DNA from: Alphaproteobacteria bacterium
Lineage (GTDB): Bacteria > Pseudomonadota > Alphaproteobacteria > CAAHEQ01 > UBA3637
Reading direction: 5' to 3'
DNA length: 64,000 nt
NCBI GenBank assembly: GCA_017533325.1
Contig: JAFXIF010000061.1
Coordinates: 28 to 64,027, forward strand
Positions 7,035-42,840 of the stretch are shown piece by piece (position 1 is the stretch's first letter; each line of letters starts with the position of its first letter). A model generated the notes under the pieces. That model did no database searches and was not told the origin of the DNA. It was given only the letters and a program-made list of their open reading frames with translations. Made by a program: the position numbers and the translations under genes.

Positions 7035-9371
7035 TCAGTTTTTAAAAAAACTTTTAAGCCGTGTCGAATTTTTTGAAAGTTCAGTAAATGTTTTCCCCTC
7101 TGCATCTTTTAAATTTAAATCCACATTATTTTCAATCATCACCTCTACAAAAGGATGATATCCGACTAAAACCGCTAAATGAAGCAAAGGAAGTTTTGTT
7201 TTTTCATCTATTGAATTAACATCTGCTCCCGCTTTTAAAAGGATTTTAAAATATTTCATATCCTGTTGCAATAATGCCTGCCTCAACTCTAAATATCCAA
7301 GATTTTTTATTCTGTTTTGCCGGCAAAAACAGTTATTTTTCATCAAAAGGACAACAGCTTCTCGATATGAAAATGTTAAAGCCCATTCAATTGGTGTTTT
7401 TTGATACAAGTAAATTTCATTTAAATGCGCTTTTTTTTCAATTGCTTTTTCAACATAAGGAAGATTATTCGTTAAAATACCTTGAAACAACAAACATTCA
7501 TAAATCTTCCTTTGGCTTTCATAACGCGCAAAAAAGTTTTTATAGTTTTGCGATTTTTTTTGAATTAAGGAAGCACAACTTTGCCCCTCTTCATTCAAAA
7601 GGTAAGGATCAGCCCCATTTGCAAGTAAAAACTTAAAAGCTCCAAAATTATCTTTTTGAATCGCTAAATGAAGAGGTGTCTGTTTATTTTCATCCATCTC
7701 ATTTAAATCTTGGTTTTTACAATCCAAAAATTCAAAAACATGATCTTTTGGGCTTAAAACCGCAAAATGAAAAATCGTTTTTCCTTCAACATCCTTTTCA
7801 CTCAAGGAAGCATTCTTTCCTAAAAGTAATTTTATAATTTTTTTATTGCCGATTTCAAACGCTTTCATTAATGGGGTTTGTTTTTTATAATCTGATTTTT
7901 CTATATCCGGATTCAATGCAAGAATAGATTTAACCAAATTCTCGTTTTCATTACAAACCGCATGAAAAAGAAGTGTTCTTCCTTTACAATCAATGGCGTT
8001 TATATCTATTTTATTTATACCTTTGGTCAGCTTATTTACTTTACCATCCGTTAAGTTCGTTAACAGTCTTGTTAATTCTTTTTGTTTTTCACTCTTCTCT
8101 AATTTCTTTGTCAAATTTAAATCTTTTAACAAAAGATGATATAAAAGAAATAAATTTTGTTCCACAACATCAAGTTGCCGGTGAATCATTTTATTCATTT
8201 CACTGAGAGCTACTTTTAACATTAAGCCGGAAACATAAGGCATAAAAATAATAAAAGCATTCTTTAAAATAAATTTCATAAGCTTTTTTAAATAGGCTTT
8301 TTCGAAAGCTAATCTCCTATTTAAGGCATATAAAAATTTATCCGGCTCCACCGGTATTTTTTCCAACGGCATATCCGAAACAAAAAGATGTTTTTTTAAA
8401 AGAAACTTCAAATATGCTGCATAAGCCGTTTCTAATTTGAATGGTAGCGAAAATTCTGTTTTAAGCTTTCTCCAATCAGTGTGAATATTCATAATATCTT
8501 GCAACTGAACGGATAAAGAAAATTTTTGCCACAAATCTCCCCATTTTGATTTTTCGCTTTCAGAAACAGCATTGAATAAATCAGCTTCTGAAATCTGAAT
8601 ATTTTTATTTAGCCCTTCTTGTTCTTTCTTTAAAATCTTATCTTGAACAAATAACACCTCTTCAAATAAGTCTTTAAAAAACTTTTGAAAAACAGATTGG
8701 CTATTTTGCGCTGTATCCCAATCTAAATTCTCATTTTGCTTAAATAAATCACATTTTTTTTGAACTATGTCTAAAAAAATCTGACACATATCCTCTAAGT
8801 TCAAAGGTTTTAAGTCTTCAAAAGATTTTCCCTCGTTATAAAAAAATTGTTGTTCGCTCATATTCAAGCTTAAAGGATACAAATCAAAATCTTCTTTAAA
8901 TTCAACAAGATGCGGTTGATTTTCAACTTGCCATTCAAAACTTGTTTCATCAGAGTCTAAACAAACATTTTTGGAATTTTTTTTCTTTTTTTCAAGAATA
9001 TTTTCCCTCATTCTTAAACAAGCTTCTAAAAAAACCGGTCTAAGCGGTGAATTTGTTTTTTTTAAAATATTGACGATAAAAAGATCATCATCAAATTGCT
9101 TAAACGATAATAAAAGCTCATTATATTCCCTAATCAAATTTAATTTGTCATATAATGAATATTTCGATTTTTCTTCAAACGAAAAAAAAAGCTCAACTTC
9201 TTTTTGCCAAATGGCTAAAATGATTTTTTCAAAAGTTTTAAACTGCACTTCAAAATCAGAAAGATTTTTTAAATCCTGCAACCACTTTTTTTGTTCTTTT
9301 AACACCGGTAAAGTTTTTTGCATTTGAGTAGCGTTTGTATTGAAAATTAAATCAGATGAGTCTTGAAACAT
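7035..9371 (-). CDS. Ankyrin-repeat protein with a large N-terminal domain of unknown function (effector-like)
   Basis: The C-terminal ~320 aa contain about 7 ANK-like repeats, e.g. GRTLLFHAVCNENENLVKSILALNPDIEKSD, KQTPLHLAIQKDNFGAFKFLLANGADPY and KLPLLHLAVLVGYHPFVEVMIENNVDLNLKD. The start is set at Met12 (ATG 9371), which has a GGAG RBS 8 nt upstream, because the predicted -10 element overlaps the ORF-track ATG at 9404. Confidence 0.85.
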   Translation of the reverse strand: MFQDSSDLIFNTNATQMQKTLPVLKEQKKWLQDLKNLSDFEVQFKTFEKIILAIWQKEVELFFSFEEKSKYSLYDKLNLIREYNELLLSFKQFDDDLFIVNILKKTNSPLRPVFLEACLRMRENILEKKKKNSKNVCLDSDETSFEWQVENQPHLVEFKEDFDLYPLSLNMSEQQFFYNEGKSFEDLKPLNLEDMCQIFLDIVQKKCDLFKQNENLDWDTAQNSQSVFQKFFKDLFEEVLFVQDKILKKEQEGLNKNIQISEADLFNAVSESEKSKWGDLWQKFSLSVQLQDIMNIHTDWRKLKTEFSLPFKLETAYAAYLKFLLKKHLFVSDMPLEKIPVEPDKFLYALNRRLAFEKAYLKKLMKFILKNAFIIFMPYVSGLMLKVALSEMNKMIHRQLDVVEQNLFLLYHLLLKDLNLTKKLEKSEKQKELTRLLTNLTDGKVNKLTKGINKIDINAIDCKGRTLLFHAVCNENENLVKSILALNPDIEKSDYKKQTPLMKAFEIGNKKIIKLLLGKNASLSEKDVEGKTIFHFAVLSPKDHVFEFLDCKNQDLNEMDENKQTPLHLAIQKDNFGAFKFLLANGADPYLLNEEGQSCASLIQKKSQNYKNFFARYESQRKIYECLLFQGILTNNLPYVEKAIEKKAHLNEIYLYQKTPIEWALTFSYREAVVLLMKNNCFCRQNRIKNLGYLELRQALLQQDMKYFKILLKAGADVNSIDEKTKLPLLHLAVLVGYHPFVEVMIENNVDLNLKDAEGKTFTELSKNSTRLKSFFKN

Positions 9372-9395
9372 AAAATAAACTCCAAAAAACAACTT

Positions 9396-9424
9396 ATGAT
9401 ACATAAAATTTTATGATTTGTCAA
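9396..9424 (-). promoter_or_regulatory. Putative sigma70-type promoter (TTGACA-17 nt-TATCAT) of the ankyrin gene
   Basis: On the minus strand, TTGACA is at 9424-9419 and TATCAT at 9401-9396, with a 17-nt spacer. Confidence 0.4.
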
Positions 9425-9915: not shown

Positions 9916-10143
9916 TTAATCAAAAAAGCAAGAAAAAAATTGTCTTTCTTGGCCATCCTTTTTCATCATTGGTTGAGCCGGAGCAATTCCCAACATTTTG
10001 GCATACTCGGAATTAGCCAGAGTCATTTCATTATACCCTGATTGAGCCGCTTCAACGCCATTTGTATAAACCATTGCATTTTTAAATGATTTTTTAAAAT
10101 CTGCAGTATCTTGCGAGGATTGAAGTGTTTCATTTACAGTCAT
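9916..10143 (-). CDS. Hypothetical small protein (75 aa)
   Basis: An ORF with an aaggaaa RBS about 7 nt upstream, non-repetitive composition and no recognised family. It lies between hdaA and tRNA-Thr. Confidence 0.35.
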   Translation of the reverse strand: MTVNETLQSSQDTADFKKSFKNAMVYTNGVEAAQSGYNEMTLANSEYAKMLGIAPAQPMMKKDGQERQFFSCFFD

Positions 10144-13748: not shown

Positions 13749-14201
13749 TCAGTTCCCTGATAAGACTTTATTAGAAGCAAATTCAATAATAAGTTTCCCT
13801 GAACTTGCATCTGTTTCTCCTTTATTAACACGATATTGAGAAACTTCTAAATCTTCAAAATATGAAACAATTTTTTTATCTACGCCATTAAAGGTAATTC
13901 GATAACATTGATTATTATGTCTGTCTTGTAATTCACAAGTATCCACCTTAGAAGCTGAGGCATCAAACCCTTTCATAGATTGCACTAAGAACCTGTCTAA
14001 TGCCTTAATTGTTCTAACTTGAGAACCGTCAACAACTAAAACCGTTTTTAACAATGCATCTTCCAGTCCGGAAATTTTCCATTTGCTTGTCAAATAATTA
14101 TATCCGCCAATCGACGTAATGGATAAAAGACTGATGATAGAAATAACCCCCATCATTTCAACCAATGTTCTGCCTTTTTCTTGATTTTTTAACATTTTCA
14201 T
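13749..14201 (-). CDS. Type IV pilin/pseudopilin-like protein (prepilin-type N-terminal motif)
   Basis: 150 aa. A short basic leader MKMLKNQEKG is followed by RTLVEMMGVISIISLL (Gly at -1, Glu at +5, hydrophobic alpha1-N helix). A Cys pair near the C-terminal part (DTCELQDRHNNQCY) resembles a pilin disulfide loop. The gene lies 21 nt downstream of the RND pump gene. Confidence 0.65.
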   Translation of the reverse strand: MKMLKNQEKGRTLVEMMGVISIISLLSITSIGGYNYLTSKWKISGLEDALLKTVLVVDGSQVRTIKALDRFLVQSMKGFDASASKVDTCELQDRHNNQCYRITFNGVDKKIVSYFEDLEVSQYRVNKGETDASSGKLIIEFASNKVLSGN

Positions 14202-20651: not shown

Positions 20652-21785
20652 ATGACAATGGGAACAGTTCAATCAAAATGGCAACAAATTAACGGCAGTA
20701 ACATGCTTGTTTTGGTTCGTGAAACCGGGGAAACGGTTGCTCTTCCGATTGAACAAGTTTATCAAATTTTAAATCCGGTTGTAATCGATCAAGATGGGGC
20801 GCCAACTTTTTTAGTTGATGTAACAGATGCCATAACCCCTCAACAAAAACAAGCTTTGTATAACACTCCGACACCGCGCTTTGTGTCAAGTCCCTATCGC
20901 ATAACTTATGCCGAACTTGCTTCAATTTCACAAACGGGGAAACCGGTTATTGAGTCCCTTCAAAATCAATCAAACACGCAAAGCATTAATCTTGCCGGTG
21001 CTATGACGGGATTAGCCGGCGTGGCAAGTTTAGGTGCCAGAAGCACAAATTCCATCACAAGCGGAGTCAACAGCATTTCCAATGGGGTCGGAAATTTACA
21101 AAATATTGACAGTATATCCGATGTTTCTCGTGGCACAACTCAACTTTCCAATGGGCTTAATCGTTTTGCAAACTTAACGAACAATGGCAATGCCGCCGTT
21201 GATGCCACACAAGGAACGGATGATCGAAATTTCTTTTTGTCAGCCGGCAATTGGCTTGATAATTCTTTATTTGGATCTATTGCCGATCTTATGCCGATAG
21301 ATATGTTAAAAAAAGCTGTCAAAATGATCGGCGGATGTATTTCAGGTCTTTTCAAAACCCTTGGATATATCATTGAAGGGGAATGGGATAAAGCCGGATC
21401 TGTCGGGTTAAGTTGGTTAAAAGATGCAGCCGTTACCGGCGCCTTAACCTATGGAGCCTATTATCTCGGAAAAGAACTCAATTTATTTGGGAAAGAGGAT
21501 GAAGATGAAAACACCTCTTCAAATTCAGGAAGCAATTCTAATGATAACTCTAACGATAATTCTAATAACACCCCAACGGTTAATGTTTCCGTTTCAAAAG
21601 AAGATTCATTAGAATTGGTTCATAGGCCCAGCTCAAACAGCACTCCTGTTGCCGTTTTAGATCAAGCCGGAAAAATCATCACGACCGGACAAAGTCATTT
21701 ATCAGGCACCAGCACCATTTTAAATAATGGAAATTCCTCAACTGTGTTTGAATACACAATTAATCAAAAAGTGGATACAAAATAA
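20652..21785 (+). CDS. Hypothetical S/N/G-rich protein with a central hydrophobic region (orphan, effector-like)
   Basis: 377 aa in five parts: a globular N-terminal ~100 aa; a low-complexity S/N/G/T region; a hydrophobic/amphipathic block (IGGCISGLFKTLGYII...AAVTGALTYGAYYLG); an acidic stretch with SNSGSNSNDNSNDNSNN repeats; and an S/T-rich tail. No family recognised. Confidence 0.6.
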   Translation: MTMGTVQSKWQQINGSNMLVLVRETGETVALPIEQVYQILNPVVIDQDGAPTFLVDVTDAITPQQKQALYNTPTPRFVSSPYRITYAELASISQTGKPVIESLQNQSNTQSINLAGAMTGLAGVASLGARSTNSITSGVNSISNGVGNLQNIDSISDVSRGTTQLSNGLNRFANLTNNGNAAVDATQGTDDRNFFLSAGNWLDNSLFGSIADLMPIDMLKKAVKMIGGCISGLFKTLGYIIEGEWDKAGSVGLSWLKDAAVTGALTYGAYYLGKELNLFGKEDEDENTSSNSGSNSNDNSNDNSNNTPTVNVSVSKEDSLELVHRPSSNSTPVAVLDQAGKIITTGQSHLSGTSTILNNGNSSTVFEYTINQKVDTK

Positions 21786-21843: not shown

Positions 21844-22404
21844 TTAAATTTGCTTAATTTCGGCTTCTTTATTTTTTAAAGCATCATCTAAAGCTTTGAT
21901 ACCTTCATCCGTTAATTTTTGAATTTCGGTTTCATAACGCTTTTGTTCATCTTCCGTAATTGAATTATCATTTTTAAGTTTTTTAATTCCATCTAAAGCA
22001 TCACGGCGAAGATTACGAACGGAAACACGGGCTGTTTCCGTATATTTGCCGGCAATTTTAATTAATTCAATACGGCGTTCTTCTGACAACGGAGGGATTG
22101 GAATTCTGATCACAACACCATCATTCATCGGATTTAATCCAAGACCGGCTTCCACAATGGCTTTTTCAACTTTTTTAATCATTGATTTATCCCAAACCGA
22201 AACCGTTAACATTCTGGCATCAGAAACAGTAACATTTCCGACTTGATTTAAAGGCACAATAGCCCCATAAGATTCAACCATAATACCATCTAAAAGAGCG
22301 GTTGTTGCCCGACCGGTGCGAAGGCCAGAAAAATCTTTTTTAAGAGAGTCTTGAGTTTTTACCAAACGCTCTTGCATATCTTGTTTAATTTCTGAATATG
22401 ACAT
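21844..22404 (-). CDS. frr: Ribosome recycling factor
   Basis: 186 aa with the typical RRF sequence (DFSGLRTGRATTALLDGIMVESYG...VRNLRRDA). Confidence 0.95.
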   Translation of the reverse strand: MSYSEIKQDMQERLVKTQDSLKKDFSGLRTGRATTALLDGIMVESYGAIVPLNQVGNVTVSDARMLTVSVWDKSMIKKVEKAIVEAGLGLNPMNDGVVIRIPIPPLSEERRIELIKIAGKYTETARVSVRNLRRDALDGIKKLKNDNSITEDEQKRYETEIQKLTDEGIKALDDALKNKEAEIKQI

Positions 22405-22472
22405 AATAATTCCTTTTGTTAAATAAAAAATATAAATTCATTTTACCTATTTTCTAAAAAAAAGCAATTAAT

Positions 22473-22508
22473 TTTCTTAAAAAATTCTTGTTTCTTAAAA
22501 AATTCTTG
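22473..22508 (+). repeat. Perfect 18-bp tandem duplication (tttcttaaaaaattcttg x2) upstream of the GT80-like gene
   Basis: Units at 22473-22490 and 22491-22508 are identical as read. They lie 34 nt upstream of ATG 22542. Confidence 0.75.
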
Positions 22509-22541
22509 ATTTTTTCTATATTTAAATTTACTCTTTTTTAT

Positions 22542-23888
22542 ATGGGAAGATTAAGGATCAAAATCTTTATTGTTTTTATTTGTTGCATCACAGTTTTGTT
22601 TCAACAAAGAAACACTCAGCATTTGCACCTTTATTTTGATCCGGCAACAACACCGGCCTTAGTTCAAATGACCCATTTTATAAATTTACCGCCAAATGAT
22701 TTAAAAATCATCAGTTGGAATAGATTTCATAATCATATTAAAAACAAAAAACAATTCCCAAACACCGATTTTTTTATTACCGATAAGAATGATTTTAACA
22801 ATTCTTCTCTTGTTTTCCAAAAAATTGAAAAAATCCTTCAAACCCAACAAAATGTTCATATACATTTACACTTTAATTTATTGCATCCCGCCATTTATAA
22901 TTTTCTTTCAAGCCACCCGAAAACAAAAGATAAAATCAAATCTGTTCACGTGTATGAAGATGCCAGCGGCCATTTTTTAAGAGATGCGAACAAAGATGAT
23001 TTTTTAACTTCTTTACCTAAAAATTCAACGCTTTATCATTGGGGAAATCTCTCAAAAATTTGCTCTGACAATTCCTTTTCAAGATGCTCACAAATCAAAA
23101 AAATTAAAAAAAACATCTCGTTAAAAGAAATCAATTTTCAAAAATTAGCACACACATTCACCGAAAAGAAGCGAAAAAAACTATTTGATTTAACCGGATT
23201 TGATTATGAAAAAACAAAAAAACTTTTATCCGGAAAAAAAACATATTTTTATATTTTAGGGTATGACTGGCAAAAACCTGTTATCGGCGCCCAATTAGCA
23301 GCATTAAAATATCTTTGTCAACCCTCCTCAAAAACAGGCACTCCAAAAGAAGGGGAAACAGCAAGTTCAAGTCAGTCTTATTGGTTTTATAAAAATCATC
23401 CGAGCGAATTAAATATGCCAAGACACGTCATTCTTGATCATTTATGCCCCAATATAAAATCCATTGCAACACACCTTCCTTTTGAACTTTTAATCCTAAG
23501 TGATTTATCCCCACATAATGTTGCCGGTTTTTCATCAAGTCTTTTTTTCAATTTATCTTCCGAACAAATAGCCGTTTATCTTGAAAGAGCAAATGACCCT
23601 TATCGCAACATTCTTGAAAAAAACGCGCTTATCCATCCCAACAAAATATGGACTCAAAAAGAAATTGATAAACATTTAAAAGAATCCAATATATTTGAAT
23701 TTATCGAAGATGACAACAAATCAAGCTGGTTTTTAAAAATAAATGAAAACAAAATGCTAAACATTTTCAAAAATGAAGAAGTAAAAATCATTGAACAGAC
23801 AAAAAATGATTTTGTCATTCAAAAAAACAAAAAGGACATCCATACCTATCAATTTCAAAAAGATTATCAATGGCTTAAAAAACCTTAA
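22542..23888 (+). CDS. Membrane-anchored GT80-like glycosyltransferase (PmST1-type sialyltransferase homolog), copy 1
   Basis: The start is set at ATG 22542 (MGRLRIKIFIVFICCITVLF signal anchor). Motifs match those recalled for Pasteurella multocida PmST1 (PmST1 form in brackets): LYFDPATTPALVQM (LYLDPASLPALNQL), HIHLHFNLLH (LNIHLNIAH), VYEDASG (LYDDGS), YKNHP (FKGHP), LPFELL (ISFEVL), VAGFSSSLFFNL (VGGVASSLYFSL). Confidence 0.65.
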   Translation: MGRLRIKIFIVFICCITVLFQQRNTQHLHLYFDPATTPALVQMTHFINLPPNDLKIISWNRFHNHIKNKKQFPNTDFFITDKNDFNNSSLVFQKIEKILQTQQNVHIHLHFNLLHPAIYNFLSSHPKTKDKIKSVHVYEDASGHFLRDANKDDFLTSLPKNSTLYHWGNLSKICSDNSFSRCSQIKKIKKNISLKEINFQKLAHTFTEKKRKKLFDLTGFDYEKTKKLLSGKKTYFYILGYDWQKPVIGAQLAALKYLCQPSSKTGTPKEGETASSSQSYWFYKNHPSELNMPRHVILDHLCPNIKSIATHLPFELLILSDLSPHNVAGFSSSLFFNLSSEQIAVYLERANDPYRNILEKNALIHPNKIWTQKEIDKHLKESNIFEFIEDDNKSSWFLKINENKMLNIFKNEEVKIIEQTKNDFVIQKNKKDIHTYQFQKDYQWLKKP

Positions 23889-23940
23889 AAATCTTCATTT
23901 TTCCCTTGCGTTTTAAAAAGAATTTAAGTAAGATAAAGCC

Positions 23941-25929
23941 ATGTCTGATTTATTTAATGCTACACAACAAAAAAACGAATACTCTGCCAGAGATATTGAA
24001 GTTCTGGAAGGGTTGGAACCGGTTCGCAAACGTCCGGGGATGTATATCGGCGGTATTGATGAACGCGCCTATCATCACCTTGTTGCGGAAATTATTGATA
24101 ATGCTATGGATGAAGCCGTTGCAGGTTATGCCACAAATATTGAGGTGAATTTATCTGCTGACGGGTATGTCACCGTAAGAGATAACGGTCGCGGTATCCC
24201 CGTTGATCCGCATCCGAAATATCCGGATAAATCTGCCTTGGAAGTTATCACAACAACCTTGCACTCCGGCGGAAAATTCGGTGGAGGAGCTTATGGTGTT
24301 TCCGGCGGTTTACATGGGGTTGGTCTTTCAGCCGTTAACGCTTTATCTTCTCACATGGTCATTGAAGTTGCCAGAGAGAAAAAACTTTATCGTCAAGAAT
24401 ATAAGCAAGGCAAACCCATCACGGACCTTGTTTGTGTCGGGGCTGTCAGTAACAGACGAGGCACCAGCGTTTCATTTATTCCGGACACTGAAATCTTTGG
24501 GGAAACAACAAAATTTAAACCATCGACTTTGTTTAGAATGAGCCGAACAAAAGCATTTTTGTTCCGTGGCGTTGAAATTCGTTGGTCTTGTGATCCCAGT
24601 TTAATCACAAATGAAGACAAGACACCTTCTGAACAAATTTTAAAATTCCCTAACGGCGTTGCCGATTTCTTGGATTATTTAATTAAAGACAGATCGGTTG
24701 TGACGCCAAAACCTTTCACAGGTCGAATTGAATTACCCGATAATGAAGGGGCTGTTGAATGGGCAATTTGTTGGTTAGATGATTTTAAAGACGGATTTTC
24801 CTATTCATATTGTAATACAGTTGTGACCCCTTTAGGCGGAACGCATGAAACAGGTTTAAGAGCAGGTTTAACAAAGTCTTTACGTTCTTATGCTGAAATG
24901 TCCGGCAACAAAAAAGCAGCGGACATTACCGCTGACGATATTTTAAACACAGCAGGTGTCATGCTTTCTGTTTTCATTAAAGATCCGCAATTTCAAGGCC
25001 AAACAAAAGAAAAACTTGTCACTACAAGTGCAGCTCGTTTGGTTGAAAATGCAATTAAGGATCCTTTTGATCATTGGCTGAGCCGAGATATCAAATCATC
25101 TAATATTTTGCTTGATTATATCGTTGAAAAAGCAGAAGAAAGAAAAAGAAAGAAAAAAACGCTTGAAACAGCCAGAGCAAGCGCCACAAAAAAATTGCGT
25201 TTACCTGGAAAATTAGCTGATTGCTCACATGGAAAAACACTTGGAACCGAGCTCTTTTTGGTTGAAGGAGATTCTGCCGGCGGATCTGCTAAACAAGCAA
25301 GAAACAGAGAAACTCAAGCTATTTTGCCTTTAAGAGGTAAAATTTTAAATGTTATCAGCGCCTCTCAAGATAAAATTTTGGCAAATGAAGAAATTAAGGA
25401 CATGACTGAGGCTTTAGGCTGTGGCAGACGCGATAAATATAATGAAGATGCGCTTCGGTATGAAAAAATCATTATTATGACTGATGCAGACGTTGATGGC
25501 GCTCATATTGCTTCTTTATTAATGTCTTTCTTCTATCAAGAAATGCCAAAGCTTATTGAAAACGGCCATTTATTCTTAGCTCTTCCGCCTCTTTATCGAT
25601 TAACACAAGGCGGAAAATCCGTTTATGCTGCGGATGATGAAGAGAAAGAAAAAGTTTTGAAAACAGTGTTTAAAAATGCAAAAAATGTGGATATTTCAAG
25701 GTTTAAAGGGCTGGGAGAAATGCCCCCACAACAATTAAAAGAAACAACAATGGATCCGAAAAAACGAACATTATTAAAAGTTGTTGTGCCACATAAAGCA
25801 ACAGAAGAAGAGGCCGAAGAAGCAATATATACAAAAAATATTGTTACACGACTGATGGGGACAAAACCGGAATATCGTTTTCAATTTATTCAGGAACACG
25901 CCCGTTTTGTTGAAAATTTAGATATCTAA
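23941..25929 (+). CDS. parE: DNA topoisomerase IV subunit B
   Basis: 662 aa with a GHKL ATPase N-terminus (LEGLEPVRKRPGMYIGG, HLVAEIIDNAMDEA), a Toprim region (ELFLVEGDSAGGSAKQ, IMTDADVDGAHI) and a GLGEM motif. Its length, and the lack of the ~170-aa GyrB insertion, favour ParE over GyrB. Confidence 0.85.
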   Translation: MSDLFNATQQKNEYSARDIEVLEGLEPVRKRPGMYIGGIDERAYHHLVAEIIDNAMDEAVAGYATNIEVNLSADGYVTVRDNGRGIPVDPHPKYPDKSALEVITTTLHSGGKFGGGAYGVSGGLHGVGLSAVNALSSHMVIEVAREKKLYRQEYKQGKPITDLVCVGAVSNRRGTSVSFIPDTEIFGETTKFKPSTLFRMSRTKAFLFRGVEIRWSCDPSLITNEDKTPSEQILKFPNGVADFLDYLIKDRSVVTPKPFTGRIELPDNEGAVEWAICWLDDFKDGFSYSYCNTVVTPLGGTHETGLRAGLTKSLRSYAEMSGNKKAADITADDILNTAGVMLSVFIKDPQFQGQTKEKLVTTSAARLVENAIKDPFDHWLSRDIKSSNILLDYIVEKAEERKRKKKTLETARASATKKLRLPGKLADCSHGKTLGTELFLVEGDSAGGSAKQARNRETQAILPLRGKILNVISASQDKILANEEIKDMTEALGCGRRDKYNEDALRYEKIIIMTDADVDGAHIASLLMSFFYQEMPKLIENGHLFLALPPLYRLTQGGKSVYAADDEEKEKVLKTVFKNAKNVDISRFKGLGEMPPQQLKETTMDPKKRTLLKVVVPHKATEEEAEEAIYTKNIVTRLMGTKPEYRFQFIQEHARFVENLDI

Positions 25930-25941
25930 ATCGGAGATAAA

Positions 25942-26511
25942 ATGAATTTCATCATCACCCTTTCCGGACAGCTTGGCAGTGGCAAATCCACCGTTGGAAA
26001 ATTGCTGGCAAAAAAACTTGGATACACCTTTTATTCAACCGGTAATGCCCAGCGGAAAATTGCCGCCGAGCGAGGATTAACAACACTGGAACTTAACAAA
26101 CTTTCAATGACAGATTCAAGTATTGATGAACAGATTGATTCTGTTTTTAAAGAATTGGTGCTTCAAGACGAAAATTTTATTGTTGATTCCAGATTGGGAT
26201 TCTTTTTTATCCCCTCCTCCTTAAAAGTCAAATTAAATGTGGAAACAAAAGTTGCAGCAAGTCGCATTTTTAATGATCCGACTCGATCTGAAGAAAAAAA
26301 ATATGCTTCAATTAAAGAGGCCGAAACTGCCTTATTAAACAGACGGGCTTTAGAAGTTGAGCGATTTAAAAAATTATATCATGTTGATATCGATAACGAA
26401 GCTAACTTTGATCTTGTTATTGATACAACAGGTAAAACTCCAGATGAAATTGTTAATCTGATATTAGAAAAATTCAAAAAATTTCAAAAAAGACGCTTAA
26501 AAGAAATTTAA
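25942..26511 (+). CDS. Short cytidylate kinase-family protein (archaeal/type-2 style CMP kinase-like)
   Basis: 189 aa with a P-loop (ITLSGQLGSGKSTVGKLLAKKLGY) followed by STGNAQRKIAAERGLT, DSRLG and RFKKLYHVDIDNEANFDLVIDT. This pattern matches the short cytidylate kinase family found in archaea rather than the ~220-aa bacterial Cmk. The start is 12 nt after the parE stop. Confidence 0.65.
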   Translation: MNFIITLSGQLGSGKSTVGKLLAKKLGYTFYSTGNAQRKIAAERGLTTLELNKLSMTDSSIDEQIDSVFKELVLQDENFIVDSRLGFFFIPSSLKVKLNVETKVAASRIFNDPTRSEEKKYASIKEAETALLNRRALEVERFKKLYHVDIDNEANFDLVIDTTGKTPDEIVNLILEKFKKFQKRRLKEI

Positions 26512-26526
26512 AAAAAGAGGCATAAA

Positions 26527-27812
26527 ATGAAAACGATATTAAAATTAAGTGTTGTTTTTATTCTTTTATTTTGTGCTTACTTTACCTATACACCACCACC
26601 AAAAATTCATGTTTATTATGATCCGGCAACCTCGCCTGCTTTATTGCAAATGGTTGATTTTATTAATCAGGACGAGCAAGACATAAAATTCATTTTTTGG
26701 AAGAGATTTGATCAATATATTAAAAATAAAGAGAAATATCAAATACTTATTTTATAAATAACTGGGATCTTTTTTTTAAAAAACTTCAAGAAGTCTCTAA
26801 AGCAAATCCAAAATCAAAAATCATTTTACATCACAATCTCCATCATGATTATTTTTTCAATCATTTTATTGAGGTATTCCCAAAAAATAAAATTTTAGAA
26901 TCCCACGCTTATGAAGATGCTTCAAATTATATGTGGTGGTCCCCAAAAAAAGACTATATTTTCTTTAACTATCCTAAAATAAAACATAAATTGCACATGT
27001 GGGGCGATATAAAAAAACTTTGCTCAACAAAAGATGCGCACCCTCAATGTGAAAGAATCAAAAAATTAGATGATCTTATAAAAATTATACCCGTTGACTT
27101 TTATGCTCTCAAAAATAAACTCGCCCCTGATGATTTGGAAAAAATCGCAGTTCTTGCCGGCGTTGATTTAAAAAAATATCAAAAACTTCTAAAAGGGAAA
27201 AAAACAGGGATTTATTTACTCGGATTTATTGCCGGAACAAATTTAGAAAGTTTTCAACTGGTGGCATTAAAAGACCTTTGCAAAGCCTATAAGGACACCA
27301 CCTGGTTTTATAAACCACATCCCACTCATTTAAAAACACCAACTCATAAAGTTTTAACGCATCTATGTCCCAATATTAAACCTTTAAATCATCAGATTCC
27401 TTTCGAATTTTTGATTTTATCAGGTTTAGCGCCACAATATGTTGCCGGAATCGGCTCTTCAACTTTTGCAAATTTAAACCCTGAAAATATCCTTTTTTAT
27501 ATTCAACGAGGATATGTTGATTCTTATACGAACACGTTAAAAAAGGCAAAAATTCTCCCTGAAAAAGGAAAAGTTATTACACCTGAACAATCAATAAAAA
27601 AAATAATGAAACTTAATATGTTTTTTATCGGTAACGCTGGATGGTTTATCAAAATTGATAATGAATATTGCAAGATGACGCAAAATGAGTGTTACACAAT
27701 CGTTGAGGACACTCCCACAACAAAAACATTCAAAAACAAGAAAAATCAATTAGTTAAAACAAAACATATTGAGTCTTATAAGTGGTCAAAATTTGAACTC
27801 ATCAACGAATAA
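26527..27812 (+). pseudogene. GT80-like glycosyltransferase, copy 2, interrupted by a single frameshift near 26740-26745
   Basis: ORF 26527-26757 (signal anchor plus VYYDPATSPALLQMVDF) is in a different frame from the open frame 26730-27812 (NWDLFF..ILHHNLHH..AYEDAS..YKPHP..IPFEFL..VAGIGSSTFANL). Joined at tat-caa-a/at-act, the two pieces align with copy 1 across its whole length. Confidence 0.65.
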
Positions 27813-40029: not shown

Positions 40030-42840
40030 CTAATTCATCTCTTGCAACATTTTAACCAATCTGTTTAAGCCGACACTGTTTGATCCTTTTACCAAAACAA
40101 TATCATTTTCATTTATCTCAGAATAAATCCCCCTCATTAACTCTTCAACGGTTTCAAAATAACCGCCTTGAATATGACTAGGCAATAATTCATGTAAATG
40201 TTTCATAAGTGTTCCTATGGTATATACCCGATCAATTTGATTTTCAAGAATATTTTTTAATAAATCTTTATGTAATTGAACGCCATTTTCTCCCAACTCC
40301 AGCATTTGCCCTAAAATCGCTACTTTTCTTCCCCCTGTTTGCTTTGATAAAACAGATAAAGACGCTTTCATTGAAGAAGGATTGGCATTATAACAATCAT
40401 CTATTAATGTTATTTTTTTATTTCCTTTTAATACAAGCTGTTTCATCAACCCTCGGCCTTGAATGGGTTTTGTTGTTTGAATAACATCTAAAACATTTTC
40501 AAAATCAAGACCTAAAGCTTCAATTCCGGCTAAAACAGCCAATGAATTCATGGCAAAATGCTGTCCCAAAAAATTAATTTGATAAGCATATTCTTGGTCT
40601 TTTCTTTTAAATTTAATAAAACACTTATCCGAGATATCACATGAAATTAACTGAAAAGAAGCCTCTTGATTTTGCCCGAAAGAAACTATTTTTAATCCGT
40701 TTTCAAGCGCTTTTTTTTGCATAACAGGGAAAAATGAAGAGTCATGATTTAAAATTGCAACACTTGATTTTTTTTGTCCCAGAAAAATTTCGGATTTTGC
40801 CAAGGCAATCTCTTCTTCAGAGTTAAAAAATTCCCTGTGAGCCGATCCGATCATGGTAATAATACTGACATCCGGTTGCACAAGTTTCGTTAATTTTGAA
40901 ATTTCGCCTTTATGGTTCATCCCTAATTCAATCACCGCATATTTTGTTTCCGGATGCATAGAAGCTAACGTAAGAGGAACCCCGATTTCGTTATTAAAAT
41001 TTCCCTTCGTTGCATGTGTTTTTCCATAAACTTCTAAACAAGTTTTTAACATTTCTTTTGTTGTTGTTTTTCCGGAACTTCCCGTCACACCAATAAAAAG
41101 TGCCGAACTCTTCTTTCTTCGATATAGCGCTAATTTTTCAAGAGCTTCCATCACGTTTGGAACAATAATTTGACGGTTCTTTTGAACCCCTTGAACTTCT
41201 TTTTCAACCAAACAAGCACCGGCGCCTTTTTCAACAGCTGTTTTAACAAATTTATGTCCATCAACCTTTTCCCCTTTAAGGGCAAAAAATAAGTCACCGG
41301 GTTCAAGTGTTCTTGTATCGATTGAAACGCCTGAAACACGAATACTTTCATCCACAAAAACACCTAATGCTTCTTCTAAAGACTGCTTATCCCAAATCAA
41401 ATGATTGAGTGTGTTTATTGCCGCCAACGCTTCTTTTTTATCAGAGAACGGATAACAAATTCCATTCACGAGCTGCCCTGTTTCATGTCCTTTTCCGCAT
41501 AACACCAATATATCATTTTCTTTTAAAGAGCCAATAGATTGATAAATAGCTTCTTTTCTGTTAGCGATGACTTTTGCTTTAGGACAAGCTTTAAAAATCA
41601 TCTCTCGAATTAAAGAAGGCTCTTCAAACCTTGGATTATCATCTGTGATAAAAACTTTATCTGCTTCTTTTTGAGCAATTTCACCCATTAAAGCTCTTTT
41701 TCCTGTATCCCTGTTTCCGCCACAACCGATTAAAGCCACTAATGATCCTTTTGTATGCGGTCTTAAAGATGCAAGAACATTATGAAGCGCATCCGGCGTA
41801 TGCGCATAATCAACAAAGATATGAGCGCCGTTTTGACTTGCAACGCATTCCAATCTGCCCTCCGGCGCTTTTAAGTTTGGCAAATAATCAATCAAATCAT
41901 TCATTGGAATACCCAATTTTGAAACCAATCCCATAGCGCAAAGAATATTATGAACTTGAAATGAGCCAAAAATATTTAAATGAATCTCTTTTGTTATTCC
42001 TTGATAAGTTAAAGATAAAAGTTGCCCGTTCGGTAAAGGAGATAATTTATTAATTTTCAAATCATGACCTTTAACCCCATATGAAAAAATCGGAATATTT
42101 CTTTCTTTTAAAATTAAGCTCAATTCATTAAAACTCTCATCATCTGTGTTTAAAACTCCAACACCCTCTTGTTTTAAAAGCTTTTGAAACAAGATTTTTT
42201 TAGCGTCAAAATAAGCTTGCATAGATCCATGATAATCCAAGTGATCACGTGTTAAATTTGTGAACCCCGCTGATTCAAATTCAAAAGAAAAAAGTCTGTT
42301 TTGAACAAGCCCATGACTGGAAGCTTCCAAAACAACATATTCAACGTCTTTTTGTTCCAGTTCATATAATGTTTTTGCAAGAGATATGCTGTCCGGCGTT
42401 GTCATTTTCCCTGTTGTTAAAACATCATCAACATAGACACCCAATGTGCCAATCGAAGCTGTTTTATGGTGAAAAGCATTTAACAGTTGATAGACATAAT
42501 AAGCCGTTGATGTTTTTCCGTTTGTGCCGGTCACGGCAATTGTTTTTATTTTGGAACAAGGATACAAAACTGATGCAATTTTAGCTATATCCTCGCTTAA
42601 ATTTTTGCTTTTAATAACAGGTAAATGTGTTTTAATTTCTCTATCAGTCAAAACAATAGCAGCCCCGTTTTCAATTGCTTCACTTAAAAAATCAAGTCCG
42701 TCTGCCTTTTCACCTTTAACCGGAACAAAAATGTCCCCCTTATTTATTTCTTTAGAAGAAACACTTATTCCCTCTACTTGAATATCAGTGCAATCATTAC
42801 ATTCGAGATTAACCTTTTTTAATAACTCAACTAATAACAT
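40030..42840 (-). CDS. murE/murF: Fused MurE-MurF (UDP-MurNAc-tripeptide synthetase + UDP-MurNAc-pentapeptide synthetase) in one ORF
   Basis: A single 936-aa ORF. The N-terminal half has MurE motifs (AVTGTNGKTSTAYY, DYAHTPDAL, TDDNPRFEEP). The C-terminal half has MurF motifs (SIDTRTLEPGDLFFALKGEKVDGHKF, GVTGSSGKTTTKEML, DDCYNANP). There is no stop, and no ATG or SD, at the junction near aa 480. Confidence 0.9.
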   Translation of the reverse strand: MLLVELLKKVNLECNDCTDIQVEGISVSSKEINKGDIFVPVKGEKADGLDFLSEAIENGAAIVLTDREIKTHLPVIKSKNLSEDIAKIASVLYPCSKIKTIAVTGTNGKTSTAYYVYQLLNAFHHKTASIGTLGVYVDDVLTTGKMTTPDSISLAKTLYELEQKDVEYVVLEASSHGLVQNRLFSFEFESAGFTNLTRDHLDYHGSMQAYFDAKKILFQKLLKQEGVGVLNTDDESFNELSLILKERNIPIFSYGVKGHDLKINKLSPLPNGQLLSLTYQGITKEIHLNIFGSFQVHNILCAMGLVSKLGIPMNDLIDYLPNLKAPEGRLECVASQNGAHIFVDYAHTPDALHNVLASLRPHTKGSLVALIGCGGNRDTGKRALMGEIAQKEADKVFITDDNPRFEEPSLIREMIFKACPKAKVIANRKEAIYQSIGSLKENDILVLCGKGHETGQLVNGICYPFSDKKEALAAINTLNHLIWDKQSLEEALGVFVDESIRVSGVSIDTRTLEPGDLFFALKGEKVDGHKFVKTAVEKGAGACLVEKEVQGVQKNRQIIVPNVMEALEKLALYRRKKSSALFIGVTGSSGKTTTKEMLKTCLEVYGKTHATKGNFNNEIGVPLTLASMHPETKYAVIELGMNHKGEISKLTKLVQPDVSIITMIGSAHREFFNSEEEIALAKSEIFLGQKKSSVAILNHDSSFFPVMQKKALENGLKIVSFGQNQEASFQLISCDISDKCFIKFKRKDQEYAYQINFLGQHFAMNSLAVLAGIEALGLDFENVLDVIQTTKPIQGRGLMKQLVLKGNKKITLIDDCYNANPSSMKASLSVLSKQTGGRKVAILGQMLELGENGVQLHKDLLKNILENQIDRVYTIGTLMKHLHELLPSHIQGGYFETVEELMRGIYSEINENDIVLVKGSNSVGLNRLVKMLQEMN

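Follow-up and report, generated by a model that had tools for sequence, protein, structure and literature searches.

Does a gene that resembles the Pasteurella multocida sialyltransferase PmST1, found in an alphaproteobacterium, encode a working enzyme of the GT80 family, and which sugar would such an enzyme transfer? We addressed this question in a window of 64 kb (the whole stretch of DNA that was analysed), which contains the gene, here called GT80a.

22542-23888, plus strand: GT80a, an intact gene for a 448-aa glycosyltransferase of the GT80 family (PM0188/PmST1 type), identified by ORF, Pfam, PDB, AlphaFold and Foldseek.

The reading frame runs from an ATG at 22542, whose Met is common to the orthologues, to a stop at 23886-23888 and encodes 448 aa, as the preliminary description had stated. 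The protein matched Pfam PF11477 (PM0188) with E = 8.6e-14 and 51.7 bits, above the curated cut-off of 25 bits, so the profile bears out the GT80 assignment that had been proposed from motifs. The best single-sequence match in a phmmer search of the PDB was 2zwi (3e-14, residues 27-343), and the clade profile found GT80 chains only, from 3.7e-27 (4v2u) to 2.5e-19; by these searches GT80a aligns with solved GT80 sialyltransferases over its full length. The precomputed Pfam domain was PF11477 in 12 of the 16 homologues, and the NCBIfam scan of GT80a returned no family match. GT80 had been called a small family, which agrees with the 218 representatives found among 1.84 billion. An exact-sequence look-up in public assemblies returned no identical protein; the closest public copy (P0001/L022; L numbers denote the loci compared) is 97% identical and came from another sample, and the closest characterised enzyme shares only ~20% identity in the Foldseek matches. 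These data demonstrate that GT80a is a real, intact member of the GT80 family. The reading that we prefer, with a probability of roughly 0.6, is that GT80a is a functional, anchored GT80 enzyme that transfers a CMP-nonulosonate to the cell surface and is part of a two-paralogue surface-variation locus.

The six motifs claimed for the protein (HLYFDPATTPALVQM, HIHLHFNLLH, VYEDASG, YKNHP, LPFELL and VAGFSSSLFFNL) are all present in the correct order, and the PmST1 forms quoted beside them agree with the PDB chains in the profile alignment. In the profile alignments, the Asp, His, Glu and Ser-Ser of GT80a align with PmST1 D141, H311, E338 and S355/S356, and PmST1 Asp141, His311, Glu338, Ser355/356, His112 and Trp270 are all conserved in GT80a. 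The motifs carrying the first four of these are located as follows.

22956-22964, plus strand: E139-D140-A141, the D/E-D/E-G motif, in which D140 is the counterpart of the catalytic base D141 of PmST1 and Ala stands in place of Gly (alignment to 2c84 'YDDGSM').
23397-23402, plus strand: HP motif H286-P287 (PmST1 H311), in the C-domain.
23484-23486, plus strand: E315 (PmST1 E338), in the C-domain.
23535-23540, plus strand: S332-S333 (PmST1 S355/S356), in the C-domain.

Across 14 clade members at 31-47% identity, E139, D140, H286-P287 (FYKNHP aligned with FKGHP) and E315 (PFELL against SFEVL in PmST1) are invariant; in the Ser-Ser motif (AGFSSSLFF against GGVASSLYF), S332 is invariant and S333 is kept in at least 90%. 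Among 109 other family representatives, 97 have D in the column of D140, and family-wide conservation was similarly recorded for H (100/109), P (100/109), E (108/109) and the two Ser residues (103/109 and 98/109). This (near-)invariance of the catalytic columns in the clade and the wider family argues for purifying selection on catalysis. The residue roles are those given in the literature (PMC4202792, PMC2169525, PMC7908025), where the HP motif of PmST1 (H311-P312) contacts the CMP phosphate and the carboxylate of sialic acid.

GT80a departs from the Gly requirement of the D/E-D/E-G motif, as it has A141 at the third position. This counts against activity, because the equivalent G154A exchange abolishes the activity of a GT38 polysialyltransferase (PMC2169525). 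On the other hand, clade members have A or S at this position, and among 109 other family representatives 72 have G, 24 have S and 9 have A; since a third of the members carry Ser or Ala there, A141 can be regarded as a natural variant. The E-D-A sequence in place of E/D-D-G would also suit the view that GT80a is a decaying or dead relic, with the frameshifts and repeat tracts described below reflecting relaxed selection or metagenome assembly error, and the lack of a partner pathway nearby points the same way. We consider this view very improbable, since the window copy is full-length with every catalytic residue intact, the 97%-identical copy was recovered from a separate sample, and the catalytic columns do not vary within the divergent clade.

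The AlphaFold model of GT80a (pLDDT 87.3, pTM 0.83) has two alpha/beta domains. In the Foldseek search with this model, ranks 1-24 were all GT80 structures (E 8e-18 to 5e-14; TM-score on target 0.52-0.69), and the next family, GT38 (5wcn), followed at 1e-6, eleven orders of magnitude weaker. The protein is thus predicted to adopt a GT-B fold of two domains that is nearest to the GT80 structures, as had been anticipated, with its 24 best PDB matches being GT80 sialyltransferases. The parts of the protein downstream of the N-terminal segment are the following.

22617-23327, plus strand: N-terminal Rossmann-like (acceptor-side) domain, residues 26-262, delimited by the alternating strand/helix pattern, alignments and invariant columns.
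23328-23375, plus strand: interdomain linker, residues 263-278, QPSSKTGTPKEGETASSS, with pLDDT <50 at residues 265-276.
23376-23690, plus strand: C-terminal Rossmann-like (CMP-donor) domain, residues 279-383, delimited by alignments and invariant columns.
23691-23885, plus strand: all-beta C-terminal module, residues 384-448, specific to the subfamily, with no counterpart in characterised GT80 enzymes.

Within the N-domain, H110, N112 and H115 correspond to PmST1 H107, N109 and H112, and W243 to PmST1 W270. This domain also holds the clade-specific cysteines C174, C182 and C259, and a fourth, C302, lies in the C-terminal Rossmann-like domain; the subfamily keeps all four without exception, and PmST1-type enzymes lack them. 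The C-terminal module was modelled with seven strands at residues 384-446 and, when modelled alone, with a pLDDT of 94.3; it had no match among PDB folds (best E = 1.2) and no family in Pfam. The module and the four-Cys signature co-occur, and GT80a belongs to a distinct GT80 subfamily marked by these invariant cysteines and the additional beta-module.

Comparison with characterised enzymes places this subfamily more precisely. PmST1 (PM0188) and PdST of P. dagmatis (2ex0, 2ihz, 3s44, 4v2u), which are alpha2,3-sialyltransferases, share with GT80a the Pfam family, the GT-B two-Rossmann fold and an N-terminal hydrophobic segment, and 3s44 of this group was the top Foldseek match (E = 8e-18). However, GT80a has only ~20% identity to them and differs in the Gly to Ala change, the extra cysteines and the added 65-residue module, and its host is an uncultured gut alphaproteobacterium, whereas theirs are Pasteurellaceae. 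The highest TM-score (0.69 on target) was obtained with the P. phosphoreum alpha2,3-sialyltransferase 2zwi, which also has in common with GT80a a Ser after the HP motif (KGHPS and KNHPS, respectively). The Photobacterium alpha2,6-sialyltransferases (P. damselae, JT-ISH-224; 4r83, 2z4t) have an extra N-terminal domain, whereas the addition in the GT80a subfamily is C-terminal; of the longer 4r83 enzyme, 4r9v covers residues 113-497, a part that is described as the GT-B domain. The Photobacterium enzymes come from marine Vibrionaceae, in contrast to the gut origin of GT80a.

The N-terminus of GT80a bears on where the enzyme would act.

22545-22610, plus strand: hydrophobic anchor or signal segment, residues 2-23 (R3, R5, K7, then IFIVFICCITVLF).

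Three basic residues are followed by a 13-residue hydrophobic core, residues 2-23 were modelled as one helix by AlphaFold, and the hydrophobic N-terminus is kept across the clade; the segment probably serves as a membrane anchor or signal. A lipoprotein reading based on the conserved Cys 14/15 was dropped, as the preceding residues (V-F-I-C, L-M-V-C) depart from the lipobox consensus. The positively charged N-terminus and the four invariant cysteines together suggest that the catalytic domain may lie outside the cytoplasm; such a location would fit poorly with a CMP-sugar pool inside it and thus counts against our preferred reading. In the alternative that follows from this, GT80a would work outside the cytoplasm on host material, either as a CMP-dependent trans-sialidase/sialidase or with scavenged host CMP-sialic acid. 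The basic residues and hydrophobic core do resemble a signal peptide or signal anchor, the subfamily cysteines are accompanied by a DsbA-like gene within the window, GT80 enzymes are multifunctional with sialidase and trans-sialidase activities, as seen for PmST1 in vitro (PMC4202792), and N. gonorrhoeae relies on host CMP-Neu5Ac (PMC8092323). Nevertheless, we judge this alternative quite unlikely, because the CMP-binding residues are intact, which speaks for nucleotide-sugar chemistry, and because Lst, the 'outer-membrane' sialyltransferase that has been studied most as a precedent, is now placed in the cytoplasm (PMC8092323).

The relatives of GT80a all come from animal-gut metagenomes or MAGs (yak, roe deer, other gut and rumen sources), and those in named assemblies are labelled Alphaproteobacteria with the exception of one Gastranaerophilales. 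The alphaproteobacterial origin given in the preliminary description is consistent with the titles under which 12 related MAG loci are recorded. Its label 'endosymbiont-like' is unsupported and was dropped, in view of these gut and rumen sources and of the window gene content, which includes a full cell-division and peptidoglycan (dcw) cluster, RND efflux and transporters.

The preliminary description had also found no CMP-sialic acid genes in the window, and here Pfam, synteny and tblastn all agree with it. Of the 52 window ORFs of at least 150 aa, 38 were searched with Pfam, the dcw-cluster ORFs were covered by synteny with annotated relatives, and tblastn of the window with NeuA-type, NeuB and MFS queries returned nothing. 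No genes for CMP-nonulosonate synthesis, activation or uptake were found in the 64-kb window or in the ~20 kb around clade members. In the more distant Alphaproteobacteria L016, L017 and L023, GT80 adjoins an MFS transporter and a PF02348 cytidylyltransferase, whose named relatives are CMP-Neu5Ac or CMP-legionaminic acid synthetases, and in L015 (Gastranaerophilales) it adjoins NeuB in a cassette of NeuB, NeuA-HAD and GT80. The best NCBI match to the L016 cytidylyltransferase was in another genome with a GT80, MFS and NeuA cassette, and none of the relatives of this protein that were searched had the yak-MAG locus-tag prefix J6V53. The GT80 proteins of these four loci share the family and the gut habitat with GT80a at 27-28% identity, but they are linked to uptake, activation or synthesis genes, whereas the GT80a subfamily lies between housekeeping genes without a pathway partner in the vicinity; judged by match ends at query residues 354-387, they are also without the C-terminal module. 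The nearest GT80 representatives outside the clade carry no annotation, and a literature search found no paper joining GT80, sialyltransferase and Alphaproteobacteria. We counted the NeuA-type and NeuB neighbours of the distant GT80 genes in favour of a sialic-acid-type donor.

The absence of NeuA, NeuB, NeuC and a sialic acid transporter from the window and the clade loci would also fit a different donor. With the same fold and chemistry, GT80a might use endogenous CMP-Kdo or another non-sialic CMP-ulosonic acid and form a Kdo cap, for which no sialic pathway is needed. We regard this as unlikely, since we know of no GT80 enzyme that uses CMP-Kdo, the more distant members of the family have NeuA/LegF-type synthetases and NeuB, and not KdsB-type enzymes, as their linked genes, and the pathway absence rests on 64 kb of genome. 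W243 is also kept, and in PmST1 the corresponding Trp forms a hydrogen bond with the 7-OH of the nine-carbon sugar (PMC7908025). A Kdo donor nevertheless has parallels: donor promiscuity exists in GT80, as PmST1 accepts CMP-legionaminic acid (PMC10795189), and Neisseria Lst and H. influenzae LsgB use CMP-Kdo as a donor of Kdo if no CMP-Neu5Ac is available (PMC8092323). These two enzymes are precedents both for a sialyltransferase without its own CMP-Neu5Ac synthesis and for the CMP-Kdo fallback (PMC8092323), and the D/E-D/E-G and HP motifs are shared across the families (PMC2169525); however, they belong to GT52, and the window protein matches GT80, not GT52 or GT38.

Returning to a nonulosonate donor, we infer that GT80a is enzymatically active, uses such a donor and has a surface acceptor. 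It would be a membrane-anchored, inverting GT-B glycosyltransferase of CAZy family GT80, whose C-terminal Rossmann domain would bind a CMP-activated nonulosonic (sialic-acid-type) sugar via H286-P287, E315 and S332/S333. D140 would deprotonate an acceptor hydroxyl held by the N-terminal domain, and the sugar would go to a cell-surface glycoconjugate, most plausibly lipooligosaccharide. Glycan mimicry, as suggested earlier, may be one outcome.

GT80a is followed by two spacer genes and a second GT80 gene.

23941-25929, plus strand: ParE/GyrB-type topoisomerase subunit, a spacer gene between GT80a and GT80b (Pfam; context only).
25942-26511, plus strand: cytidylate-kinase-like protein, the other spacer gene (Pfam; context only).
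26527-27812, plus strand: GT80b, the second GT80 paralogue, frameshifted and now split into ORFs of 76 aa and 293 aa.

The same spacer arrangement (23941-26511) is found in L001, L004, L018, L019, L020 and L024, and both GT80 genes have a GC content of 30% in a window of 35%. Alignment to the near-identical strain L001 locates the lesion of GT80b in the loss of one C near 26740 (TATCCAAAT to TAT-CAAAT). After repair, the 428-aa product is 91% identical to the intact L001 copy, passes PF11477 with 37.3 bits and aligns with GT80a over the full length at 36% identity (E = 5e-78). GT80b has been lost by this frameshift in the window, by a nonsense codon in L024 and by absence in L004 and L005, and these losses arose independently. 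GT80a itself is damaged in L019 (two frameshifts) and L011 (a remnant). These many broken copies would be expected of a relic, but nearly every genome compared has at least one intact GT80 copy.

Comparison with L001 further revealed a hypervariable segment in GT80a.

22900-23888, plus strand: mosaic segment of GT80a relative to L001.

DNA identity to L001 is 95-99% up to ~22900 and then falls to 52-66% until the GT80a stop, except for one 100-nt window at 80%, and the next gene is 100% identical. At the protein level, GT80a is 72% identical to L001 in the N-domain and 47% in the C-domain, against 98-100% for 15 flanking proteins and ~90% for GT80b. These data demonstrate that GT80a of the window is a mosaic allele with respect to L001, with a sharp breakpoint near 22900.

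The linker in which GT80a shows low pLDDT is the site of an (AG)n tract in orthologues. L001 and L002 carry (AG)14, and L021, with the same allele, has an 18-nt AG tract; in L003, L012 and L020 the contigs start or stop inside the tract. Only n = 10, 13, 16 or 19 gives a full-length protein from the tract allele; the assembled tract-bearing alleles are all OFF or broken, and both tract-length variants are one unit away from ON. In the orthologues, the length of the tract thus differs from sample to sample and determines the frame in which the gene is read. Errors of consensus and assembly that metagenomes suffer at repeats could play a part in these OFF or broken alleles, and the uniform OFF state is what a relic might show; however, identical (AG)14 alleles were obtained in independent assemblies from two samples by two pipelines, and the tract occupies the one insertion-tolerant loop. 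No other (AG) tract of at least five units was present in 20 loci (~340 kb) or in the window, and a C10 tract occurs in GT80b of L011. The window allele has no repeat in its linker and is therefore fixed in frame, so that phase variation belongs to the sister alleles and not to the window copy. Real-time phase switching may occur in those alleles, and the contig ends inside the tract lend only indirect support to mixed tract lengths within one population.

GT80a and GT80b thus differ sharply or are off between near-identical strains, as expected for a surface-varying gene. The 47-72%-identical alleles amid ~99%-identical flanks, with a repeat switch in the linker, indicate a target of strong diversifying selection, and the mosaicism and repeat-mediated on/off states fit a role in surface variation. 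We propose that the two-paralogue cassette (GT80a, parE-like, cytidylate-kinase-like, GT80b) acts as a surface-variation locus in an uncultured gut lineage of Alphaproteobacteria, where recombination would exchange GT80 alleles and either copy can be lost. In sister strains, (AG)n slippage would toggle GT80a, the tract being read as (Arg-Glu)n in a disordered interdomain linker, whereas in the window strain the repeat-free GT80a is locked ON and GT80b is off.

A known parallel is provided by Lic3A/Lic3B of Haemophilus influenzae, paralogous LOS sialyltransferases that are switched ON and OFF by intragenic repeat slippage, as proposed here for the GT80 pair, and for which OFF frequently prevails over ON in vivo (PMC3938747). 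They differ in belonging to another CAZy family with an unrelated fold and in having a CAAT tetranucleotide at the 5' end, whereas the GT80a orthologues have a mid-gene (AG)n dinucleotide; Lic3A/Lic3B carry their repeats, and the window allele has none. A literature search for a phase-variable GT80 enzyme found none.

A more far-reaching combination of these features, which we hold to be doubtful, is that the four-Cys, beta-module GT80 pair would remodel the surface from outside the cytoplasm without an endogenous CMP-sialic acid pathway. Sugar would then be gained by trans-sialylation from host sialoglycans or from scavenged host nucleotide-sugar, the C-terminal module would be an acceptor- or envelope-targeting domain, and mid-gene (AG)n and poly-C toggling together with recombination swaps would let strains alternate between surface glycoforms under pressure from host immunity or phages.

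GT80 enzymes are the workhorses of chemoenzymatic sialoside synthesis, and to our knowledge every member characterised so far originates from marine vibrios or from a small number of gamma- and epsilonproteobacterial pathogens. The deep, uncharacterised subfamily described here, with an extra domain and cysteines and from uncultured animal-gut Alphaproteobacteria, adds new diversity to these enzymes, which may include novel specificities for donor or acceptor. Under our preferred reading, the locus suggests that a very poorly known lineage of gut commensals displays and varies a sialic-acid-like surface cap.

The region upstream of GT80a contains one further variable element.

22474-22508, plus strand: tandem duplication of TTCTTAAAAAATTCTTG with an 18-nt period, between frr and GT80a, overlapping a promoter-like site.

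A scan of 22300-24000 found no terminator and 11 promoter-like sites where 7.5 were expected, a result that carries no information, and the Rfam scan of the window found two tRNAs only, neither near GT80a. The promoter-like match at 22495-22522 lies over the duplication, which is present in two copies in the window and in L022, which has the same allele, and in one copy in L001 and L002.

GT80a, the gene under study, is a real member of the GT80 family by sequence, fold and catalytic residues, and the identification made in the preliminary description was correct; its activity, donor, acceptor and topology we infer. The proposed open reading frame of 448 codons was confirmed, and a longer form from a TTG start at 22488 found no support, since all orthologues begin at the equivalent of the ATG. 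The genes concerned are the following:

Window 22542-23888 (+): GT80a
Window 25942-26511 (+): cytidylate-kinase-like gene (PF13189)
Window 26527-27812 (+): GT80b, the neighbouring paralogue

The GT80a product matched PF11477 (PM0188 sialyltransferase) in Pfam significantly (E = 8.6e-14, 51.7 bits; curated cut-off 25 bits), and an NCBIfam scan matched no family. A phmmer search against all PDB sequences retrieved only GT80 sialyltransferases (top 2zwi, 3e-14, residues 27-343), and the clade profile gave stronger matches than this single-sequence search (4v2u, 3.7e-27; the Pasteurella multocida enzyme PmST1, 2c84, 1.6e-24). All motifs quoted earlier were found in the correct order, and clade-profile alignment showed that the PmST1 forms given there are those of the solved chains.

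The AlphaFold2 model of GT80a, built with a 14-sequence alignment (pLDDT 87.3, pTM 0.83), comprises an N-terminal helix (residues 2-23) and two alpha/beta domains; residues 265-276 form a disordered linker, and the C-terminal part (residues 384-446) is, unexpectedly, an all-beta module. In a Foldseek search against the PDB, GT80 structures came first and filled ranks 1-24 (E 8e-18 to 5e-14; TM on target 0.52-0.69), and the next family was GT38 polysialyltransferase (1e-6).

Residues were mapped through sequence and profile alignments, anchored on PmST1 'YDDGSM' (D141, and M144, which is changed in the M144D mutant of PDB entry 3s44), and the Asp, His, Glu and Ser-Ser of GT80a matched those of PmST1. 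The roles of the mapped PmST1 residues are described in PMC4202792, PMC2169525 and PMC7908025.

Corresponding residues of PmST1 and GT80a
PmST1 D141: GT80a D140
PmST1 H311-P312: GT80a H286-P287
PmST1 E338: GT80a E315
PmST1 S355/S356: GT80a S332/S333
PmST1 H112: GT80a H115
PmST1 W270: GT80a W243

The profile, the fold and the residues as aligned all agreed with GT80, and none of the three checks named beforehand spoke against it. The 14-member clade alignment shows no variation at H110, N112, E139, D140, H286, P287, E315 or S332, S333 is conserved in at least 90%, and the same positions are kept in 97-108 of 109 further family representatives. The sole departure in GT80a is Ala for the Gly of the D/E-D/E-G motif; every clade member has Ala or Ser there. 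In a GT38 enzyme the corresponding mutation, G154A, is inactivating (PMC2169525), but 33 of the 109 other family members naturally have Ser or Ala here.

Searched exhaustively with an HMM, 1.84 billion representatives yielded only 218 family members at E <= 0.001, and GT80 is therefore a small family, as had been claimed. A word-indexed search of 5.8 billion clusters found 16 close relatives, none of them named. Four cysteines (C174, C182, C259, C302) are invariant across the clade, whereas PmST1-type enzymes lack them, and they co-occur with the C-terminal module (both in 15 representatives, neither in 79). Modelled alone, the module reached pLDDT 94, with no neighbour among PDB structures (best E = 1.2) and no family in Pfam. 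GT80a is best regarded as a structurally new variant of GT80, set apart by its four additional cysteines, its C-terminal beta-module and the Ala of its DDG motif.

GT80a is hypervariable between strains. In one strain represented by L001 (ENA) and L002 (Logan), 15 flanking proteins are 98-100% identical to those of the window, whereas GT80a shows 72% identity over the N-domain and 47% over the C-domain, and GT80b about 90%. DNA identity is 95-99% as far as about 22900, falls to 52-66% from there to the GT80a stop (one 100-nt interval at 80%), and returns to 100% in the following parE; this is recombinational replacement of the allele, with one breakpoint within the gene. The GC content is 30% in both GT80a and GT80b, and 35% for the entire window. 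Between frr and GT80a, TTCTTAAAAAATTCTTG is duplicated in tandem with an 18-nt period (22474-22508 (+)), and the duplication overlaps a promoter-like site; two copies occur in the window and L022, which carry the repeat-free ON allele, and one in L001/L002, which carry the (AG)n allele.

GT80b, which the preliminary description does not mention, is split in the window into ORFs of 76 and 293 aa by the loss of one C near 26740 (TATCCAAAT to TAT-CAAAT, compared with the intact L001/L002 copy). The repaired protein has 428 aa, is 36% identical to GT80a across its full length and passes PF11477 with 37.3 bits; the intact copy of sister strain L001 is 91% identical to that of the window. The order GT80a, parE/gyrB-type gene, cytidylate-kinase-like gene, GT80b is repeated across the lineage, and the kinase-like gene is kept between the GT80 genes in every lineage genome. 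Since GT80 enzymes release CMP as the leaving group and are known to bind it, a functional tie of this gene to the GT80 genes is conceivable; it is also kept in L004, which lacks GT80b, and therefore may simply be housekeeping.

In L001/L002, GT80a carries (AG)14 in the interdomain linker, immediately 5' of the WFYKxHP motif, and the protein is cut off at 277 aa. L021 has the same allele with an 18-nt tract, likewise out of frame; in the yak MAG one contig (L003) ends and another (L012) begins within the tract, and the L020 contig starts within (AG)14. Among tract lengths generated in silico, full-length GT80a resulted only at n = 10, 13, 16 or 19, and the in-frame tract translates to (Arg-Glu)n in the very loop that is disordered in the AlphaFold model. 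No other (AG) tract of at least 5 units was found in 20 loci (about 340 kb) or the window, and the linker of the window allele and of its 97% twin L022 contains no tract.

States of the GT80 genes in the window and homologous loci
GT80a intact: window, L022, L004/L013, L005, L018, L024
GT80a off, or contig broken at (AG)n: L001/L002, L021, L003+L012, L020
GT80a decayed or absent: L019/L010, L011, L006, L008, L009
GT80b intact: L001/L002, L006, L008, L009, L011, L012, L018, L019, L020
GT80b dead: window (frameshift), L024 (nonsense, codon 60)
GT80b absent: L004, L005

At least one intact GT80 copy is present in almost every genome. The locus is best described as a two-paralogue, recombining surface-variation locus that is repeat-switched in sister strains; it is useful for enzyme discovery and informs surface variation in an unstudied gut lineage, and its mechanism is not unprecedented. 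In L011, codons 21-24 of GT80b, at the 5' end of the gene, hold a C10 tract that is in frame (10058-10067) and is among three G/C runs of at least 8 bases in 404 kb. Runs of G or C are uncommon in these low-GC genomes, and in the yak MAG a C8 and a C9 tract follow GT80b at a distance of about 7 kb (L012 11105-11112, 11463-11471); all three tracts may be further contingency loci.

Concerning the donor, the reported lack of neuA/B/C was borne out: the 64-kb window contains no NeuA/B/C, KdsB or sialic acid transporter. In more distant members of the family (27-28% identity), carried by other gut Alphaproteobacteria, GT80 adjoins an MFS transporter and a PF02348 cytidylyltransferase whose named relatives are CMP-Neu5Ac or CMP-legionaminic acid synthetases, and in a Gastranaerophilales locus NeuB and a NeuA-HAD fusion precede GT80.

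GT80 cassettes in other gut bacteria
L016 7850-11067: MFS, NeuA-type cytidylyltransferase, GT80
L017 8670-13015: MFS, NeuA-type cytidylyltransferase, GT80
L023 5470-8696: MFS, NeuA-type cytidylyltransferase, GT80
L015 5900-9189 (Gastranaerophilales): NeuB, NeuA-HAD, GT80

These neighbours tie the gut-bacterial GT80 family to nonulosonate chemistry but do not settle the window enzyme's own donor. The occurrence of such compact cassettes in other gut MAGs suggests that many uncultured gut bacteria decorate their surface with sialic-acid-type sugars. A sialyltransferase without endogenous CMP-Neu5Ac supply, and a CMP-Kdo fallback, have precedent in Lst and LsgB (PMC8092323), and PmST1 takes CMP-legionaminic acid as a donor as well (PMC10795189).

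Twelve of 13 related loci from species-representative genomes are titled 'MAG: Alphaproteobacteria bacterium' and one is a Gastranaerophilales MAG; the sources named are the rectum of yak and the colon and rumen of roe deer. In the window (GC 31-40%), a complete dcw/peptidoglycan cluster is accompanied by genes for RND efflux, transporters, DsbA, a protein with ankyrin repeats and housekeeping functions. The genome had been called endosymbiont-like; nothing in this gene content or in the relatives' sources shows an endosymbiont, and the evidence points to an uncultured gut lineage. Four further genes were observed in the window:

7035-9404 (-): 789-aa protein carrying several ankyrin repeats at about residues 519-608, a eukaryote-like domain that hints at interaction with a host or protists
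40030-42840 (-): 936-aa ORF with two full Mur-ligase domain sets within the dcw cluster, which appears to be a MurE-MurF fusion
13749-14201 (-): 150-aa protein adjoining the RND efflux genes, with a weak prokaryotic N-terminal methylation motif match (E = 0.0037), which may be a pilin or pseudopilin
20652-21785 (+): 377-aa protein unmatched in Pfam, with a central segment that is hydrophobic and a tail of low complexity rich in Ser, Asn and Asp

The last gene lies upstream of frr in all relatives, and its product is fast-evolving, with 68% identity in L004 compared with 97% for frr.
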